Positions 3,099 to 49,780 of a stretch of 64,000 bases of DNA are shown here, piece by piece. How positions within the stretch are numbered: position 1 is the stretch's first letter; each line of letters starts with the position of its first letter. The stretch is taken from the IMG/VR virus record IMGVR_UViG_3300033804_000036. One strand, given 5' to 3'. Source of the stretch: a virus (taxonomy: Duplodnaviria; Heunggongvirae; Uroviricota; Caudoviricetes). The notes under the pieces were generated by a model, which saw nothing but the letters and a program-made list of their open reading frames with translations, ran no database searches and was not told the DNA's origin. The position numbers and the translations under genes were made by a program.

Positions 3099-4106
3099 AT
3101 GCGAACAGCAGAGCAGTTGCTTAAAGCAGGATTGATGTTGTGTGACACGCCGACAGTCAAGAGTGCACAGAATCTTACAGTCCCTATCAGGAAATACGAG
3201 AGCAAATTTGATGGCACGAGAGGTAAAGGCGCGAATCTTGGAAACAACCAGATAGAGATCATCGGCAGGGACAGAGGCAACGGTCAGGGAACGTTGTATG
3301 GAACAAGAGGAAACCTTCCAGAACTGAACAAGGACATGCAGAGAGCACCTGCACAAACAGTTTTTGACATGGAAATAATCGGACGCAACGAAGTGGGCAT
3401 CGTAACTTTTTCCATCAGCCAGACACGATGTGCAAACCATAAAGCCGTTCCATCAATTGTAGAGCAGAATCCCATCACGGGAATGTGCTTTGACATTCTG
3501 ATGTTGAGAGGAAAAGAAGTTTGGCAGTTGCCTTATCTGGGACGGAAAGCCATCTTGAAAGAGGAACTCAGCACGGGAGGATATGAACACCTAGAATATT
3601 CTGAGCATTACGACGACGGTCGAGAGTTGTGGAAGAATGTTGAGCAGGGATACATGGAAGGCGTGATTGCAAAAGTGGCGGCAAGCCCGTACACTTTCAG
3701 CAGAGGACCTGAATGGTGGAAGCTGAAGTTTCAACAGGACATAATAGTCGACGTAGTCGGCTACACGGCTGGAAAAAACGCTCGGGAAGGACTTTTCGGA
3801 GCGCTGATCGTCACCAAAGACGGAAAACACATCGGAGAAGTCGGCCCAGGACACTTAGAAAGGTCAGAATCCGAGAAGCTGACCGCTTTTTTGAACGCTC
3901 AACCCAAAATTCCATGTCCATTCCTCATTGACAAGCCATATCAAGCCATCCGAACCACGCTTCAAGCAGACGTGACCTTCCACAGACTCTCAAAATACGG
4001 AATAATGCGGTTCCCGGTGCTGAACAGAACCATCTACCCTCAACAAGTGCAGTTGCAAGACTGTCCGAAGCCGACAACATCACCAATTTCCCCTTTTTCT
4101 GGGTGA
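3099..4106 (+). CDS. ATP-dependent DNA ligase-like nucleotidyltransferase, 335 aa
   Basis: Motif I KFDGTRG, motif III FDMEII, motif IV EGVIAK, motif V WWKLK. An OB-like C-terminal region follows. Confidence 0.72.
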   Translation: MRTAEQLLKAGLMLCDTPTVKSAQNLTVPIRKYESKFDGTRGKGANLGNNQIEIIGRDRGNGQGTLYGTRGNLPELNKDMQRAPAQTVFDMEIIGRNEVGIVTFSISQTRCANHKAVPSIVEQNPITGMCFDILMLRGKEVWQLPYLGRKAILKEELSTGGYEHLEYSEHYDDGRELWKNVEQGYMEGVIAKVAASPYTFSRGPEWWKLKFQQDIIVDVVGYTAGKNAREGLFGALIVTKDGKHIGEVGPGHLERSESEKLTAFLNAQPKIPCPFLIDKPYQAIRTTLQADVTFHRLSKYGIMRFPVLNRTIYPQQVQLQDCPKPTTSPISPFSG

Positions 4107-4113
4107 AAGTAGA

Positions 4114-4293
4114 ATGGAGTTAAAATTAACGAAATCCAAAGGCACTACAACGCTAGTCTTCTACGTCAGCGAACAGAGATACGCAGATGCCGAGAAGCTT
4201 GTAGAAAGCGCTGAACTTAAGGCTGTCTTCCAGAAATTCGGCTTTCCAATCGAAGCGGTAGTAAAATCCTCAGTCAGGGCACTACAACATTAG
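4114..4293 (+). CDS. Small hypothetical protein, 59 aa
   Basis: Motif gggtgaaagtagaATG. Below the ORF-track cutoff. In frame to TAG at 4291. Confidence 0.35.
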   Translation: MELKLTKSKGTTTLVFYVSEQRYADAEKLVESAELKAVFQKFGFPIEAVVKSSVRALQH

Positions 4294-4439
4294 AATGCAA
4301 GAGCTTCTTCCTCCATGTTAACCCCTTCTTTTTTCTCTATGGGTGAGCTTGCGAGGCTCGACTGTCATTGGCAGAAACCATGCCTTAAATGTGTCGTTTG
4401 CCCTGCTCAGTCAGCCCGCAGCCACTCGGGTGAATGTAG

Positions 4440-4805
4440 ATGACGTTTCATCTAGCGTTTAAAGTGACGGAAGTTAGAGAAGACGAACATAACCCTGACC
4501 ACGTCCAACTCTACGCAGTAGTCGAAGCCCCTCAAGAACCCAAACAACAGCAACAGCCTAAAGTAATACAAATCGGCATTCCAGAGAAAGACGACGTATC
4601 CAATTTCGGACAGAAACTCCAAACGTCGCTGACAGAAGCAGGGCTAATGCCACAGCAAAGAAAACGTCCCATAGCGGGAATCAGCCTGTACATCTCAGCG
4701 CACCAGTTCATCCAGCTTGGCAGACCTTCAGTCGGAGACCTCATCAGCATAGACGCGGAAACCCTGCCGAGAGGTTTTGACGCGCCCGCCAAGTCCGAGG
4801 AATAA
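4440..4805 (+). CDS. Hypothetical protein, 121 aa
   Basis: gggtgaatgtagATG motif start. Confidence 0.45.
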   Translation: MTFHLAFKVTEVREDEHNPDHVQLYAVVEAPQEPKQQQQPKVIQIGIPEKDDVSNFGQKLQTSLTEAGLMPQQRKRPIAGISLYISAHQFIQLGRPSVGDLISIDAETLPRGFDAPAKSEE

Positions 4806-4807
4806 CC

Positions 4808-5005
4808 ATGACCCAGAAGGTTGACGGCAAACATCCACAGAAGATTGAAGTCCCACCAGACGGCTGTGACGCATGGCCCCATTGCAACACCTGTCCATAC
4901 CCATGCACGGAAACACAGATCGCCGAGAAAGTCGGCAAAATCAGACAACAACTCATAGCAAATGCTGAAAGACGAAAGAACCCAAACTGGAAGAACGACC
5001 TATGA
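4808..5005 (+). CDS. Small Cys-rich protein, 65 aa
   Basis: ATG overlaps the upstream stop. Contains CDAWPHCNTCPYPC. Confidence 0.35.
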   Translation: MTQKVDGKHPQKIEVPPDGCDAWPHCNTCPYPCTETQIAEKVGKIRQQLIANAERRKNPNWKNDL

Positions 5006-34928: not shown

Positions 34929-34948
34929 TTTTTCTGTTGGGTGAAAAA

Positions 34949-35671
34949 ATGTCTGAATATCCAAAGATTGAAACATTGTTTGACCGCGACCCGAAAACGG
35001 TCAAGGTTGACGAAAGCAAAATTCGACTGCCAGAGTTTCTAATGGTAAGCAAATGGTACGTCACAGAGAAAATTGACGGAACAAACGTACGGACTGATTT
35101 CAAAACCAAATGGGAACCAACTGGAAAGTTTCTAAGTCCAAACCAGCCTGTTGTTCAAAATGCTGGTCGCGTGGTAGAAGTTGCGGGCAGAACTGAAAAT
35201 GCGCAGATGCCGCCGTTTCTCTATCGGTTTCTGTCCGACACTTTCACTCTGGAAAAATTGCAGCAAACATTTCCAGATCTTGAACCTCATATCACCGTAA
35301 CAATTTACGGCGAAGGTTACGGACCAAAAATTCAAAGCGGAGGTAACTATCGCAAAGACATTGCGTGTAGACTTTTTGACGTGAAAGTTGGTTCGTGGTG
35401 GCTTGAACCTGACAACATCGACAGTGTAGCTCGGAAGCTGGGCATTCAAACTGTTCCGTTGATTTCGGAAGCCATGACCATTGAAGACGCAGTCGCATTC
35501 GTCAAGAATAAACCGCAATCCAAAGTTTCAATGCAGGAATATGAAGGCATATGCAAAGACGGAAAATATCCATCAATAGAAGGCATAGTAGCAAGGACTA
35601 CACCGCTATTGTTGCGACGCAACGGCGAAAGACTAATGTGGAAACTGAAATGTAAAGACTTCAAACTCTAA
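34949..35671 (+). CDS. ATP-dependent RNA-ligase-like nucleotidyltransferase (Rnl family)
   Basis: Motif I KIDGTNV, motif IV-like EGIVAR, motif V WKLK. Confidence 0.62.
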   Translation: MSEYPKIETLFDRDPKTVKVDESKIRLPEFLMVSKWYVTEKIDGTNVRTDFKTKWEPTGKFLSPNQPVVQNAGRVVEVAGRTENAQMPPFLYRFLSDTFTLEKLQQTFPDLEPHITVTIYGEGYGPKIQSGGNYRKDIACRLFDVKVGSWWLEPDNIDSVARKLGIQTVPLISEAMTIEDAVAFVKNKPQSKVSMQEYEGICKDGKYPSIEGIVARTTPLLLRRNGERLMWKLKCKDFKL

Positions 35672-36795: not shown

Positions 36796-36872
36796 AGACA
36801 ATTAGCTCAACCTGGTTGAGCATTGGCCTATAGAGCCGAAGAATGAGGGTTCAAATCCCCCATTGTCTACCA
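36796..36872 (+). tRNA. tRNA with an AUA anticodon (Tyr-like) and CCA encoded. The only + strand tRNA
   Basis: Acceptor AGACAAT/ATTGTCT, D-arm GCTC-aacctggtt-GAGC, anticodon arm TTGGC-CTATAGA-GCCGA, T-arm GAGGG-TTCAAAT-CCCCC, then A-CCA. Confidence 0.55.
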
Positions 36873-37149: not shown

Positions 37150-37629
37150 ATGAATTGGGGATATGTGGCAGGCTTCTTTGATGGAGAAGGTTGTTTAACT
37201 TTCTCATATGAAAGTAAGCAAGTAGCTCCAAGAATTGAAATATCAAACTGTAACTCGGATACATTAGAAGCACAAAGAACTTTTACAGGTAACTTAGGTC
37301 ACATAAACCCGTATAAGCCGCGACGTAGACATAGTGGCTTACTCCCGAAATACACAAAGAATACCCGACCGATTTGGCGATGGGACATTGCTCATCGCGA
37401 CGACGTACAAACTTTCCTTGAAAACATAAAATCCTTTCTTATCATTAAGAAAGATTTGGCTGAGCTAGCACTCGTAATAATCGCAAATAATGACTACTCC
37501 AAATGTTCACATAAACTTCACAGAGTTGACCAGAAGAAATTCGACGCAAATATTGGAAAGAGGAGAAGACCTGCAAGGAACTTGGTAAAGAGTATAAAGT
37601 GCATCCAATGGCGATTCAAAAATTCATGA
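37150..37629 (+). CDS. LAGLIDADG homing endonuclease, single motif
   Basis: MNWGYVAGFFDGEGCL. A tatatag TATA-like element lies upstream, where the GGGTGAA motif is absent. Confidence 0.65.
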   Translation: MNWGYVAGFFDGEGCLTFSYESKQVAPRIEISNCNSDTLEAQRTFTGNLGHINPYKPRRRHSGLLPKYTKNTRPIWRWDIAHRDDVQTFLENIKSFLIIKKDLAELALVIIANNDYSKCSHKLHRVDQKKFDANIGKRRRPARNLVKSIKCIQWRFKNS

Positions 37630-44769: not shown

Positions 44770-44841
44770 TCCTCTCACATGGATTCGCACCATGACTTCT
44801 TGGTTTACGGCCAAGTGTGCTAACTACTACACTATGAGAGG
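44770..44841 (-). tRNA. tRNA-Tyr(GTA)
   Basis: Hand fold: acceptor cctctca/tgagagg, T-arm catgg-attcgca-ccatg, anticodon arm cttgg-tttacgg-ccaag (RC loop CCGTAAA). Confidence 0.55.
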
Positions 44842-45224
44842 CTGATTTCGTATTTCAGTCCAAATTTATTCTCGATATAATGTGCGGCATTGCAAACATG
44901 ACACAGCACGTTAAACTCGTTTTTTCGTTGTTCTCGAAGAATACTTCTAAGTAATTGCCAATATCCGTGTGTTTTCTGATCTTTATGTCCTCCGAGGTTA
45001 AGGTGATTGATTTCCAACACGGCGAAGACGGTACATCCACATCTTGCGCATTTTGCTCCGCCGAGGTATTCAAGCACCTTTAACTTCAAATTTTGTTTGG
45101 CTCGGCTGTCTATGATGTGTTGTTTTTCAGGATTTTTCTGTCTCCATTTTTTCACGTAGTCACGATTGAACTCTCTCATATAGGTTCGTCGTTTGTCCTT
45201 GTCTTTGTATCTATCGTGTGGCAT
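44832..45224 (-). CDS. HNH endonuclease
   Basis: CARCGC ... EINHLNLGGH ... CHVCN. Paralog of 48099-48470 and 48850-49263. Its 3' end overlaps the 5' end of tRNA-Tyr. Confidence 0.65.
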   Translation of the reverse strand: MPHDRYKDKDKRRTYMREFNRDYVKKWRQKNPEKQHIIDSRAKQNLKLKVLEYLGGAKCARCGCTVFAVLEINHLNLGGHKDQKTHGYWQLLRSILREQRKNEFNVLCHVCNAAHYIENKFGLKYEISLS

Positions 45225-47045: not shown

Positions 47046-47320
47046 TAGCCCCGGAGAGAATCGAACTCTCGTCATCGGCTTTCTCCAGCGTTATCGGAAG
47101 AGGCTGACACCAGCACGGTTTCTGCGCACCGTACCGCACGCTCCCCAGTACCGACACTTCCTGGGACTTAGGTTAGGCACATACCTCCTTTGCCGACGCA
47201 TCCAAAGGCTTATGCCCTCGTTAAGACACACCTCTTAGTCGCCCACAGAGGATTCTGGTACTACCAGAGCGTCAAAGTCTTTCAGAGGCCGACATCCTTT
47301 TCCAGTTGGACTACGGGGCT
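47046..47320 (-). tRNA. tRNA-Gln(CTG) with a ~200-nt intron
   Basis: 3' half 47047-47079: acceptor agccccg, T-arm gagag-aatcgaa-ctctc, stem TCGGC. 5' half 47281-47320: cggggct acceptor, D-arm GTCC/GGAT, stem GCCGA, loop CTCTGA. Confidence 0.5.
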
Positions 47321-47459
47321 GCGAAACTAGACGCGCTCAACCTCAGGGAACTAACAACGTGCCATAAGGCAAAGGCTCTTTTTGTAGCCACGTTCTGTTG
47401 CCCTGCTTGTACTGGCTACCATCGGATATGTCATCTAGTTTTCTTCAGGCGCGTCGGAG

Positions 47460-47548: not shown

Positions 47549-47620
47549 TAGGCGTGGTCGGGGTTGAACCGACACATACAGCTTATCAGACTGTTGTGCA
47601 GACCAGCTACACCACACGCC
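47549..47620 (-). tRNA. tRNA-Ile(GAT)
   Basis: T-arm gtcgg-ggttgaa-ccgac. Anticodon arm acagc-ttatcag-actgt (RC loop CTGATAA). Confidence 0.55.
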
Positions 47621-47624
47621 CATA

Positions 47625-47771
47625 TACAGAGGAGAGGATTTGAACCTCCGTTCTCAAGGTTTCTCGCATCTCAATCGGCTAGGGATGCACGGCTAGTTCC
47701 TAGCAACCATCTAACGTGCTTCCATGAGATGTTATGAGCCTTGCGGGATAGCCTGACTACCCTACCTCTGT
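47625..47771 (-). tRNA. tRNA-Met(CAT) with a ~72-nt intron and an A1:U72 acceptor
   Basis: Acceptor acagagg/cctctgt. Anticodon stem caagg/ccttg. Loop CTCATAA. Confidence 0.5.
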
Positions 47772-47783
47772 TCGTTATTTTGG

Positions 47784-47929
47784 CGCTGGGTAGCGGATTT
47801 GGACCGCTGGTACCTTTTTGGGGTACATCAGATTTCTGCGGCCTCCATTCGAGTTACGCCCTTGTGAAGCGTTCAAGTCTCGTCTTGCCCATAGCAATCT
47901 GACGCATTAAGCCGCTCTGCCAACCCAGC
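47784..47929 (-). tRNA. tRNA-Ser(GCT), type II, with a ~58-nt intron
   Basis: Acceptor gctgggt/acccagc. Variable-arm hairpin GTACC-ccaaaaa-GGTAC. Anticodon stem TCAGA/TCTGA. Loop TTGCTA. Confidence 0.5.
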
Positions 47930-47947
47930 ACTTATATTTTTTGGTCA

Positions 47948-48108
47948 TAGTGGGGGTGGGATTCGAACCCACGCGTTGGCCCCTACGGGAAGAGGTTTCT
48001 CACAGGCTGAACAGTCGTTCTTAGCCGTCCTTAGCATCGAGCCTACGACTTGAGCTTCGAGCTTTAGTCTTAAGCCTCTCGCTTTCAGCCATGCTTAGCT
48101 ACCCCACT
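47948..48108 (-). tRNA. tRNA-Leu(TAA), type II, with a ~72-nt intron
   Basis: Acceptor agtgggg/ccccact. Variable arm TCCCGTAGGGG. Anticodon stem AGAGG/CCTCT. Loop CTTAAGA. Confidence 0.5.
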
Positions 48109-48470
48109 ACATTGTCTGGCAACCATTTTATGTCCCAATGATCTTCAATACCTCTTAACCTTGTCAAACAATGCCACGCATTGCATACTCTACAGGTTAG
48201 TTCCAGTTCATCTTTGTTTTGTTTTCCGTTCAGTATCGCAAAGTAGAATGCTCTTCGTGTCTGCCACTTCTTCCTTTTATGTCCGCCTCCGTTCTTATGG
48301 TTAATTTCCAAAGCTTCGGATATATCGCAACCACAATACACGCATTTTCCTCCAAGGAAAGCAAGCACGCGTTTTCTGAGCATCCGTCCATATTCGGCTC
48401 TTTGTAGTCTTCTTTTTCTTTGCCATTCTTTTTGATAGACTCTGTTTACTTCTCTATCAGCGTATGGCAT
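48099..48470 (-). CDS. HNH endonuclease
   Basis: CVYCGC ... EINHKNGGGH ... CRVCN. Overlaps the 5' end of tRNA-Leu. Confidence 0.65.
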   Translation of the reverse strand: MPYADREVNRVYQKEWQRKRRLQRAEYGRMLRKRVLAFLGGKCVYCGCDISEALEINHKNGGGHKRKKWQTRRAFYFAILNGKQNKDELELTCRVCNAWHCLTRLRGIEDHWDIKWLPDNVVG

Positions 48471-48520
48471 GAAAGAGGATATGGGTTCGACGGTATTAAG
48501 GTTATTGTTGAACCTTGTGG

Positions 48521-48642
48521 CGGATCCGGCGGGATTTGAACCCGCGAGTGGGAGCTATCCCTGCCCATTGTTTAAGGGGATCAGGCTTAAAGGGTTCAGG
48601 CTTCGCTGTCTCCTGCCTTAGACCTTACTGGGCGACGGATCC
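48521..48642 (-). tRNA. tRNA, intron-containing, anticodon unresolved
   Basis: Perfect acceptor ggatccg/cggatcc, T-arm gcggg-atttgaa-cccgc. Middle contains repeated GGGGATCAGGCTT / GGGTTCAGGCTT. Confidence 0.4.
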
Positions 48643-48650
48643 ATGTTTGG

Positions 48651-48816
48651 CGGGTGCGGAGAGATTTGAACTCTCGATCTGGAGGTTTCTCCAGTTCCTA
48701 ACTTTCGTAGCGTCAGGCTATTTCGGGTAATATCAACCTATCGAAGCATCAGGCTCTCAGAAGCTTCAGGTTTCTTTAGGAACCTCCTGCCTTCTTCCGA
48801 GCTAGGCGACGCACCC
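48651..48816 (-). tRNA. tRNA-Arg(CCT) with a ~90-nt intron
   Basis: Acceptor gggtgcg/cgcaccc. D-arm GCCT/AGGC. Anticodon stem GGAGG/CCTCC. Loop TTCCTAA. Confidence 0.5.
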
Positions 48817-48820
48817 TTGG

Positions 48821-49407
48821 TGGTCCCTCCGGGATTCGGACCCGGCTCGTTAGGTATGAAGTCTGATGTTTCGATATATCGTGGTCCAATTCCACTTCAG
48901 GTACTTCATGCAGAAGTGAACTCCGATGTGACACCAGTAGCATAGACGAACCCATTCGTCTGGTTCTAACAGTGCACGACGGAGTTCCGCTAAGGAATAA
49001 CTATGCTTTTTTCCATCTTTTCTATGGAGACTTAGTCTGTATTTACTGTTATCGCAGAGGATACACTTAGTTCCCCATACGATATCTCTCTGTTTCTTTA
49101 ATGTCTCCTTATACTGTCGTGTGCATTCGTTATTTGCAATTCTACGCTCCTCGAGGTTCTGTTTTTCACGTTTAATAGTAGTTCGCGTTGGAAGACCAAG
49201 TTTTTTCCTCTTGTACCACTCTCGTTGGTAGGTTCGTTTTGTTTCTCTATCTTTGAAAGGCATGAACTACTTATGGTTTTGAACCCTTATTAGTCTTTCG
49301 AACCCATCAGATGTCTTCCGTTCTGGATGAAAGCATCGTCCTCTCGTTGAGAGCCTAACATCCTTAGACGGCAAATTGTGCCTTTGTCCAGAATAGACTA
49401 AGGGACC
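48821..49407 (-). tRNA. tRNA-Glu(CTC) split by a ~490-nt intron enclosing an HNH gene. A second short insertion near the D-arm is possible
   Basis: 3' part 48822-48854: acceptor ggtccct, T-arm ccggg-attcgga-cccgg, stem ttagg. 5' part 49347-49407: stem cctaa, loop CTCTCAA, acceptor agggacc. Confidence 0.45.
48850..49263 (-). CDS. HNH endonuclease inside the putative tRNA-Glu intron
   Basis: CILCDN ... SLHRKDGKKH ... CYWCH. Same strand as the tRNA. Confidence 0.6.
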   Translation of the reverse strand: MPFKDRETKRTYQREWYKRKKLGLPTRTTIKREKQNLEERRIANNECTRQYKETLKKQRDIVWGTKCILCDNSKYRLSLHRKDGKKHSYSLAELRRALLEPDEWVRLCYWCHIGVHFCMKYLKWNWTTIYRNIRLHT

Positions 49408-49411
49408 GAGA

Positions 49412-49484
49412 GCGAGGTGCACGATTTGAACGTGCGAATATCGGTGTTGCGGACCGACGTGTTAACCATACTTCACCAACCCCG
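49412..49484 (-). tRNA. tRNA-Cys(GCA)? (loop CCGCAAC has C33)
   Basis: T-arm gcacg-atttgaa-cgtgc. Anticodon stem tcggt/accga. Confidence 0.45.
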
Positions 49485-49492
49485 CTTGAATT

Positions 49493-49586
49493 GTGGTGGA
49501 AGCTGGCGGATTCGAACCGCCGATCTTCTGCTGTTTTGGGATTGTTGTCCTTGCAAAGCAGTTGCTCTACCTCTGAGCTAAGCCCC
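49493..49586 (-). tRNA. tRNA-Ala(TGC) with a ~19-nt intron, CCA encoded, G3:U70
   Basis: RC reads GGGGGCT-TA-GCTCagaggtaGAGC-A-ACTGC-TTTGCA[intron]A-GCAGA ... GGCGG-TTCGAAT-CCGCC-AGCTTCC-A-CCA. Confidence 0.6.
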
Positions 49587-49780
49587 CATTAAAAACGGAT
49601 GCAAGGGAAATTCAACGTGGACTTAACCGCTTTTACTGGGCGGCTGACGCTTCAGAGTCTTGTGTTTTATGCTGTGGTCTACTCAGGCGGTTTAATCCGC
49701 CCTCCTTACATGAGAAGACTATAGACCCTTGCATGAAACACATTTTCAGTCCACTTAGCTTCAAGAGTGGCAGTTTCATG

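Follow-up and report, generated by a model that had tools for sequence, protein, structure and literature searches.

A stretch of 64,000 nucleotides (nt) of DNA from an IMG/VR virus record (IMGVR_UViG_3300033804_000036; the whole stretch is called the window below, and positions are counted from its first letter) carries on its minus strand, between positions 49407 and 48818, what is very probably a genuine tRNA-Glu(CTC) gene with three exons and three intronic insertions. The largest insertion is a cassette that contains an open reading frame (ORF) for an HNH-like nuclease and is bounded by a motif known as bulge-helix-bulge (BHB), as in introns of the archaeal, protein-spliced type. This interpretation draws on the anatomy of the gene, its homology with genes of related contigs, a presence/absence polymorphism of the cassette, covariation between distant parts of the tRNA, the predicted fold of the precursor and the recurrence of ORF-bearing introns in other loci. 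An earlier note, made from the letters of the window only, had described this gene as a putative tRNA-Glu(CTC), of archaeal type if real, interrupted by an intron of ~490 nt with an HNH ORF; this reading is supported in the main, but the insertion turned out to consist of two nested introns.

Structure of the tRNA-Glu(CTC) gene

All elements of the two tRNA portions reported in the earlier note were present, on the minus strand, and their limits were set from the sequence and from an alignment with the tRNA-Glu of a related contig, L050. Exon 1 (49384..49407) comprises the 5' strand of the acceptor stem (GGTCCCT, 49407-49401), U8 and A9 (TA), the 5' strand of the D-stem (GTCT, 49398-49395) and the D-loop (ATTCTGGACAA). 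Exon 2 (49348..49363) continues with the 3' strand of the D-stem (GGAT), G26, the 5' strand of the anticodon stem (TTAGG, 49358-49354) and the loop bases CTCTCA (49353-49348), the anticodon CTC being located at 49351-49349. Exon 3 (48818..48855) begins with A38 (48855), followed by the 3' strand of the anticodon stem (CCTAA, 48854-48850), the variable loop CGAG, the T-arm CCGGG-TCCGAAT-CCCGG (48845-48829), the 3' strand of the acceptor stem (AGGGACC, 48828-48822), the discriminator A and an encoded CCA (48820-48818).

Removal of 49383-49364 and 49347-48856 yielded a product of 78 nt in which all four stems were fully paired and which was called tRNA-Glu(ctc) by ARAGORN. This call required that all three BHB-defined introns be removed; when the D-arm insert was retained, nothing was detected. 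The gene was missed by ARAGORN with default settings and by the Rfam tRNA model, and neither program detected a second tRNA-Glu in the tRNA array of the window. An exact-match search of IMG/VR with the 3' exon gave no match.

The 7/7 complementarity of the two acceptor strands, to which the earlier note had drawn attention, was found but is not above chance when taken alone, because 21 inverted repeats of at least 7 nt occur within the 621-nt region. Comparison of the spliced window tRNA-Glu with the spliced L050 tRNA-Glu showed 70 identical positions out of 78 and nine differences (eight substitutions and one indel). Four of these nine make up two compensatory changes, each linking the 5' part of the molecule to the 3' part (7:66, T-A versus G-C; 30:40, G-C versus C-G), and none disrupts any stem. 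At the D-arm, the junction ACAA/GGAT (a slash marks the splice site here and below) recreates the CAAGGA motif of intron-less viral Glu tRNAs from related contigs, with which the spliced window sequence can be aligned. The two compensatory pairs, the intact stems and the restored CAAGGA motif therefore indicate that both portions belong to one gene under selection for pairing. The long-range acceptor stem and the T-arm were also retained in the RNAfold fold of the 590-nt precursor (z = -3.8).

Two nested introns in the anticodon loop and a third in the D-arm

Splice sites were sought with a scanner for BHB motifs, defined as a 4-bp helix (H) between two 3-nt bulges that lie on opposite strands, with a cut after the second base of each; h and h' denote the outer and inner flanking helices. 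The 492 nt between the two halves of the anticodon loop resolved into an outer remnant of 35 nt and an inner cassette of 457 nt. The cassette (intron 3, 48856..49312, minus strand), which contains the HNH-like ORF, lies at the exact 3' splice site of the older, outer intron. Its 5' boundary reads GAAG (49318-49315), AC/A and TCTGATG (49311-49305) and its 3' boundary CATCAGA (48868-48862), CTTC (48861-48858) and AT/A. Together they form 11 Watson-Crick pairs with two 3-nt bulges, ACA and ATA, staggered by 4 bp, the 3' cut falling directly before A38. Taking the 3' site as given and allowing ~100 candidate 5' sites, we put the number of such motifs expected by chance at ~2e-5. The 7-nt helix is an exact inverted repeat and was recovered in the minimum free energy (MFE) and centroid structures of the 590-nt precursor, as well as in the fold of a mini-substrate. 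The corresponding helix of the related contigs L002 and L050 is TTCGATGG:CCATCGAA, in which two pairs are changed on both sides compared with the window. Owing to the 4-bp stagger of the bulges, the cassette ends do not represent a simple transposon-type terminal inverted repeat.

The outer intron (intron 2, 49313..49347, minus strand, 35 nt) is homologous, up to GGAGAC/A, to the 37-nt intron of the L050/L002 tRNA-Glu and is regarded as the remnant of an ancestral canonical intron at position 37/38. Of its last six nucleotides, GAAG AC, the first four provide the H' strand and the final two begin the 3' bulge (AC/A), whose third base is A38 once the cassette is removed; the two bulges are then CAA and ACA, with h of 5 bp. 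The homologous intron of L050 ends in GGAG AC/A CGTAA and forms a canonical BHB, since H' GGAG pairs with the anticodon-loop bases CTCT at four of four positions. A single BHB spanning the 492 nt (5' site 49348, 3' site 48856) was also considered and was rejected in favour of the nested model, as CTCT and CTTC cannot pair to form H. The junction 49346/48855, where the earlier note had suggested looking for a BHB, accordingly forms no single motif, and separate motifs exist for the remnant and for the cassette.

The remaining insertion (intron 1, 49364..49383, minus strand; AGGCACAATTTGCCGTCTAA) is a non-canonical, BHB-like intron at position 21/22. The earlier note had seen here an extra ~22 nt as a second, non-canonical insertion; the insertion is real, and its length is 20 nt according to both the BHB scan and the gene-level alignment, in which exactly these nucleotides are missing from the L050 tRNA-Glu. 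The motif consists of H GGAC (49389-49386) paired with GTCT (49369-49366), a 5' bulge AA/A, a 3' bulge AAG and an inner helix GGCA:TGCC (h' of 4 bp; h is weak). RNAfold reproduced H, the first bulge and the inner helix on a mini-substrate, the 3' bulge being ambiguous, with a variant of 1 nt. An alternative D-arm, drawn as GTCT...AGGC with a 22-nt spacer, was rejected given that ARAGORN ignored its product and that L050 lacks exactly 20 nt. As a separate observation, part of the outer intron (49321-49335) is complementary at 12 of 15 positions to 49379-49393, where the D-loop runs into the D-arm intron. A 7-bp core of this pairing is kept in L050 in a shifted register (TCTGGAT:ATCCAGA), and the pairing is present in the MFE structure of the precursor.

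Distribution of the cassette among close relatives

The nearest homologue of the ORF (61% identity) was found on L002, and the cluster member P0006 pointed to two longer syntenic contigs, L050 and L049. Their gene order matches that of the window (Ala-Cys-Glu-...), and their tRNA-Glu(ctc), with a single 37-nt intron, was called directly by ARAGORN. Alignment of the window Glu gene with that of L050 revealed two insertions, namely the ~20 nt of the D-arm and everything that follows GGAAGAC/A in the intron. The cassette is thus present in the window tRNA-Glu and missing from the tRNA-Glu of L050, L049 and L002, the cassette-free allele of L050 containing GGGGAGACACGTAACGGG. In L050 and L002, a cassette with the same leader (GGAGACATTCGATGGGTTCGAAAAGCTAATAAGGGTTCAA...) occupies the next tRNA gene, again directly after GGAGAC/A, while in the window both tRNA genes downstream of Glu are devoid of an ORF. 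Such presence or absence at an otherwise conserved site is one of the patterns expected of mobile homing endonuclease genes. The synteny with L050/L049, the ~90% identity and the covariation also speak against two separate partial tRNAs, which the earlier note had named as one outcome that would refute it. Its view of the two portions as one tRNA-Glu agrees with the ARAGORN call on the spliced product, the syntenic gene, the compensatory pairs and the precursor fold.

The tRNA gene that hosts the cassette in L050 (2814-3468) shares several peculiarities with a window tRNA (48521-48642, minus strand; Rfam 33.5 bits, 55-nt insert). Both have an oversized D-loop and no readable anticodon, and both were rejected by ARAGORN even after splicing. 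An assignment of the L050 host as tRNA-Gln(TTG) was tried, and its product was also rejected by ARAGORN. The introns of these two tRNAs and of the window tRNA-Arg(CCT) (48816-48648) have repeated modules in common, among them GAAGCCTG...GCTTCGA and GCTACGAAAG.

The intron ORF and its family

The ORF (48850..49263, minus strand, 137 aa) lies between the tRNA halves and on their strand, as the earlier note had it, and its last codon and stop overlap exon 3. Candidate HNH residues are C67/C70/C108/C111, H80, D83, H87, H112 and H116. Residues C67, C70, H87, C108, C111 and H116 were invariant in all eight aligned sequences (CxxC...H...CxxC...H), and H80, R81, K82, D83, G84 and H112 were also invariant among the six closer members (HRKDG). 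An AlphaFold2 (AF2) model with a predicted local distance difference test (pLDDT) score of 86.4 displayed a beta-beta-alpha core (E77-81, E104-108, H109-122). On the basis of this predicted fold and of the motifs, the product is accepted here as an HNH-like nuclease, in line with the earlier note.

Two free-standing paralogues were identified in the same array. The first (48099..48470, minus strand, 123 aa) has a tRNA gene on either side, its stop codon reaching into the 5' end of tRNA-Leu(TAA), and matched the intron ORF by tblastn with an E value of 1e-6; the second (44832..45224, minus strand, 130 aa), likewise recovered by tblastn, overlaps the 5' end of tRNA-Tyr(GTA). Both carry the classical motif EINHxNGG...CxxCNxxH and matched HNH endonuclease families of PHROG (E 2e-8 to 1e-3), which left the intron ORF unmatched. 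No HNH family remnant other than these three ORFs was detected by tblastn in the other long introns of the array, and the idea that short introns are decayed cassettes therefore finds no support here.

Searching 1.84 billion representatives with the family profile retrieved 1187 members at E<=1e-3, of which 407 at E<=1e-10. Many long members (250-1160 aa, among P0008-P0093) consist of several helix-turn-helix (HTH) modules resembling sigma-70 region 4, followed by the HNH-like domain, an arrangement of which no description was encountered, and one distant long member showed a marginal match to Pfam HNH (E 0.0075). Arrays of HTH modules combined with a nuclease domain are typical of site-specific nucleases. 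Upstream of the intron ORF, a TATA-like box (CTAATAAGG, 49285..49293, minus strand) was recognised in a by-eye alignment at ~25-30 nt from the ATG. Similar TTTAAATA-type boxes precede homologous ORFs, intronic or free-standing, in L003, L006, L009, L041, L042 and other loci, and are often followed by GAACC and a Shine-Dalgarno-like motif, GGTGAT. This arrangement suggests that ORF copies have their own archaeal promoter, which in the window would possibly be an internal one.

Recurrence of ORF-bearing tRNA introns

Scans for the ORF family retrieved 32 loci in metagenome contigs and eight in GTDB genomes, the latter all belonging to archaeal metagenome-assembled genomes (MAGs). Recurrence was assessed with a pipeline that accepted a locus only if a BHB enclosed the ORF and the spliced product was called a tRNA by ARAGORN. 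It succeeded at 9 of 33 loci, compared with 0/33, 0/24, 1/21, 0/18 and 0/16 for decoy placements, and the sole decoy success proved to be a second genuine ORF-bearing HNH intron, in L020. In total, at least 12 other metagenomic loci or archaeal MAG contigs have a homologous ORF in a canonical BHB intron, the tRNAs concerned being those for Arg, Gly, Gln, Pro, Val, Ala and Phe, so that the intron, judged very unusual in the earlier note, is not an isolated case. Such introns were found in tRNA-Arg(TCT) (527 nt in L003 and 407 nt in L018), tRNA-Gly(GCC) (489 nt, L006), tRNA-Gly(TCC) (443 nt, L009), tRNA-Gln(TTG) (390 nt in L016 and 421 nt in L017), tRNA-Pro(TGG) (398 nt, L019), and tRNA-Val(TAC) and tRNA-Phe(GAA) (472 and 396 nt, both in L020). 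The BHB of L003 is strict (CTTGG CTTC TA/T CTTAACTAC ... GTAGTTGGG GAAG TA/A CTAAG). Three further loci (L041, L042 and L048), on contigs binned as Aenigmatarchaeota and Woesearchaeota, share a 454-nt HNH intron with a perfect hBHBh' motif in tRNA-Ala(TGC); L042 is located on a 265-kb contig among archaeal pilin-like genes.

Among 42 non-redundant loci, 10 ORFs were placed inside a tRNA intron by ARAGORN alone, to which L016 and L017 (BHB pipeline) and the nested cases are to be added. In the rest, the ORF was free-standing within 300 nt of a tRNA (17 loci), tRNAs occurred elsewhere in the locus (4 loci) or the locus had no tRNA (11 loci). When the ORF was compared by tblastn with 50,697 deposited records of phages and archaeal viruses, no match was found, and a protein scan of viral contigs returned a single homologue, L001, which is distant and free-standing and has no tRNA in its vicinity. 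In L003, the tRNA array is preceded upstream by a stretch of ~1.3 kb without called genes (3560-4880). This stretch seems to contain much structured RNA, including an intron-containing tRNA with a long arm that ends at ~4872.

The tRNA array and the genome

The tRNA array extends from ~49587 to 44770 on the minus strand of the window, whose GC content is 45%. ARAGORN with default settings found 12 tRNAs and Rfam 17, several of them with 20-75-nt insertions in the anticodon loop; when long introns were allowed, ARAGORN reported more tRNAs, with introns of up to 201 nt. Strict hBHBh' motifs at position 37/38 were recognised by the scanner in tRNA-Ala (49552/49533; CTGC TTTG CA/A GGA ... TCC CAAA AC/A GCAG), tRNA-Arg(CCT), which has a 90-nt intron, tRNA-Ser(GCT) and two further tRNAs. 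The strict motifs of these neighbours therefore indicate an array built for archaeal-type, protein-catalysed splicing. The strict-BHB intron of tRNA-Ala(TGC) (window 49494-49587) measures 19 nt, and the syntenic gene of L050 (2534-2608) is intron-less, which shows that close relatives differ in small introns too, by gain or loss.

Other features of the array deserve mention. A tRNA at 47050-47325 (minus strand), by eye Gln(CTG), has an ORF-less intron of ~200 nt, in which tblastn detected no HNH family remnant; ARAGORN gave the intron as 201 nt and mislabelled the anticodon. The T-loop of tRNA-Ser(GCT) (~47790-47926) reads TCCAAAT, with C in place of U55 as in tRNA-Glu, and some Glu tRNAs of related contigs have G at this position (TGCAA). 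Upstream of tRNA-Ala, a non-coding stretch of ~150 nt (49600-49745, minus strand) is more than 90% identical to L050 2395-2520, its flanks being far less conserved. It matched no Rfam family, a TATA-like sequence (CCTTAAATAC) lies near 49775, and it may correspond to a small RNA or to a processed leader of the array.

Genes assigned in the window include NAMPT, an ATP-dependent DNA ligase, an RNA ligase, an AAA ATPase, ThiF, methyltransferases and sialic-acid-type sugar genes, and many ORFs matched no family. In the relative L003, PolB, ribonucleotide reductase and dCMP deaminase genes adjoin an array of 22 tRNAs. Judging from the tRNA array, the PHROG matches and the many unmatched ORFs, the window is probably part of a large virus or of a similar element of an archaeal host. 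For the RNA ligase (34937-35671, plus strand; Pfam RNA_ligase PF09414, E 3e-14), encoded next to an intron-rich tRNA array, a role in repairing tRNAs or joining exons is possible. An ORF (37150-37629, plus strand) with a marginal match to LAGLIDADG_3 (E 2.4e-4, below the Pfam cut-off) comes after a lone plus-strand tRNA (36796-36872; called Tyr with anticodon ata by ARAGORN and scored at 59.7 bits by Rfam); its product may be a homing endonuclease of another type, likewise encoded near a tRNA.

Weighing the interpretations

Several observations weigh against a spliced, functional tRNA-Glu with a nuclease-bearing intron. The outer BHB is degraded in the window, since H (CTCT:GAAG) is paired at three of four positions, with a C.A mismatch, and the inner helix (h') is reduced to 2 bp. 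The cassette BHB, with h' of 7 bp, has an h of one contiguous bp unless the anticodon stem closes across the 41-nt insertion; like the D-arm BHB, it is without a contiguous outer helix. The T-loop of tRNA-Glu (TCCGAAT, 48834-48840) has C at position 55, where U is near-universal. The L050 tRNA that hosts the cassette gives no clean cloverleaf. As regards the ORF, its best Foldseek match was a weak one (Cap5 HNH, E 0.26), Pfam at E<=0.01 returned no family for it or for the two window paralogues, and a PDB sequence search with the family profile gave no match beyond chance zinc-finger hits. No capsid or terminase gene was found among ~40 window ORFs compared with Pfam or PHROGs. Finally, splicing itself is deduced from the sequence. 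The three BHB motifs of the window are all relaxed; cutting them would call for a splicing endonuclease with broad specificity, such as the (alpha-beta)2 and epsilon2 enzymes described elsewhere (PMC5829648, PMC3239211).

The most serious alternative, although an unlikely one, is that a free-standing HNH gene was inserted into tRNA-Glu and inactivated it, leaving decaying pseudogene halves and BHB-like pairings that do not work. The mismatched H and short inner helix of the outer BHB, the C55 of the T-loop and the occurrence of two paralogous ORFs as free-standing genes in the same array would all be compatible with such an event. A dead gene would nevertheless be hard to reconcile with four fully paired stems out of four and with two compensatory double changes, relative to L050, that span the insertion. 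The exact BHB geometry at the cassette ends, where bulges are staggered by 4 bp and the helix covaries with the L050 copy, argues in the same direction, as do the absence of any other detected tRNA-Glu from the array and the at least 12 other loci in which the same ORF family sits in canonical BHB introns.

Less probable still is a split tRNA, whose 5' and 3' parts would be transcribed separately, for instance through a promoter or terminator of the ORF, and joined in trans through the same complementary segments. In the split tRNA genes of Nanoarchaeum and Caldivirga, the halves are found at separate loci and have their own promoters. The TATA-like box inside the intervening sequence and a 4+7-bp pairing able to unite two transcripts are in favour of this explanation, but the two parts lie collinearly on one strand, correctly ordered and only 492 nt apart, and relatives hold a continuous gene with a 37-nt intron.

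A self-splicing group I (or group II) intron with an HNH gene deserves hardly any credit: its length of ~490 nt, its place in the anticodon loop and its HNH cargo do recall phage group I introns, but no Rfam match to Intron_gpI or group II was obtained at the gathering threshold in the window or at E<=10 in 47600-49700, the boundaries form BHB motifs instead, neighbouring tRNAs have strict-BHB introns of 19-200 nt, and the ~85 nt of non-coding intron outside the ORF are too few for a group I core. Equally negligible is a chance juxtaposition of unrelated tRNA fragments around the ORF, which the abundance of 7-nt inverted repeats (21 pairs in 621 nt) might have suggested but which the synteny and ~90% identity with the complete L050/L049 gene, the ARAGORN call on the spliced product and the covariation between halves contradict.

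Proposed mechanism and implications

The triple-intron tRNA-Glu gene would be matured in successive steps. GAAG can pair with CTTC or with CTCT but not with both, and the simplest reading is therefore an ordered splicing in which the cassette leaves first and the 35-nt remnant second. In the precursor, the cassette ends would pair through the 4-bp helix GAAG:CTTC and the 7-bp helix, with the staggered 3-nt bulges, while the anticodon stem would close the far side. A splicing endonuclease of the host would cut both cassette bulges and a host RNA ligase would reseal the ends. The freed GAAG could then pair with anticodon-loop bases 32-35, re-forming the old BHB, and a second round would remove the remaining 35 nt; the D-arm intron would be excised through its own relaxed BHB. 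The ORF product, served by its own TATA-like box, would most likely be a homing endonuclease. Its presumed targets are tRNA genes or introns that lack the cassette, whether those of co-infecting relatives or those in the DNA of the host, repair then copying the cassette into the cut site. The cassette would be harmless because splicing removes it from the tRNA.

It is conceivable, if doubtful, that HNH homing endonucleases serve as a general means for BHB introns to enter tRNA genes and to move from one to another, in archaea (DPANN, Asgard) and in their viruses. The nuclease would in this case target the DNA encoding the splice-site region; in both nested cases, the cassette lies exactly at an existing 3' splice site, after GGAGAC/A. 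If this holds, the short orphan introns abundant in these lineages would be what remains once an ORF has been lost, nested cassettes would make a fixed order of splicing obligatory, and tRNAs reported as 'missing' from DPANN and viral genomes would partly be annotation failures caused by introns of 300-530 nt.

The origin and spread of archaeal tRNA introns is an old question. A large-scale 'transposition' of introns has been inferred in Thermoproteales, and to our knowledge its agent has never been identified. Homing endonuclease genes are known to us only from archaeal rRNA BHB introns and from bacterial self-splicing tRNA introns. In the window and its relatives, a nuclease gene occurs inside putatively protein-spliced tRNA introns, in differing tRNA genes of close relatives; it also occurs free-standing beside tRNA genes and can be nested in an older intron. 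Such a nuclease cassette offers a concrete and testable mechanism for the spread of tRNA introns. Moreover, viral tRNA arrays can depend on splicing enzymes of the host, and since standard tRNA finders miss genes of this kind, estimates of tRNA complement and completeness are affected for DPANN genomes and large viruses.

Comparison with known systems

Comparable are the BHB introns of archaeal rRNA genes in which LAGLIDADG homing endonuclease genes are found, among them those of I-DmoI and I-PorI (PMC6125680, PMC4496867). The features in common are a protein-spliced intron in a structural RNA gene, an endonuclease ORF that fills most of the intron and the existence of free-standing homologues. 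In the window, however, the host gene is a tRNA, the nuclease is HNH-like rather than LAGLIDADG, the genome looks viral and the ORF-bearing intron is nested in an older one.

Homing-endonuclease-type introns in the anticodon loop of tRNA genes are also found in bacteria and phages, where the group I intron of tRNA-fMet carries I-Ssp6803I. These group I introns are self-splicing ribozymes, whereas the window has no group I core and its BHB boundaries would need host enzymes. Group I tRNA introns of bacteria and phages, some with homing endonucleases, and tRNA introns of Patescibacteria have been reported (PMC3984707 and PMC13011429, respectively). A further parallel is SegB of phage T4, a free-standing GIY-YIG homing endonuclease in the T4 tRNA cluster that promotes inheritance of its own tRNA region (PMC2330249). 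The two free-standing window paralogues and the 17 loci with an ORF within 300 nt of a tRNA resemble this situation, but SegB belongs to another nuclease family, has a bacterial host and is never intronic.

Archaeal tRNA introns known so far measure from tens of nt up to roughly 100-130 nt. Reviews describe them as short and ORF-less, in multiple or non-canonical positions and with C/D-box RNA cargo, no protein-coding cargo being described (PMC4090602, PMC4033280); the introns considered here, of 310-530 nt, differ in that they encode a nuclease. Genes with several or non-canonical introns are known from Thermoproteales, DPANN and Asgard (PMC4090602, PMC4033280, PMC3239211, PMC11291895), and the window gene resembles them in having several BHB introns, including one in the D-arm, with relaxed BHBs that need an (alpha-beta)2 or epsilon2 enzyme. 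The closest precedent for cargo inside a BHB tRNA intron is the box C/D guide RNA of the archaeal pre-tRNA-Trp intron (PMC4090602). There the cargo is a small RNA that serves the tRNA, whereas in the window it would be a selfish protein-coding gene. The published full text that was searched contained no description of HNH genes in BHB tRNA introns. Set beside these systems, the mobile endonuclease-bearing intron belongs to a known kind, and what is new is its combination of BHB splicing, a tRNA host gene, the HNH family and a viral-type genome, with a nested architecture.

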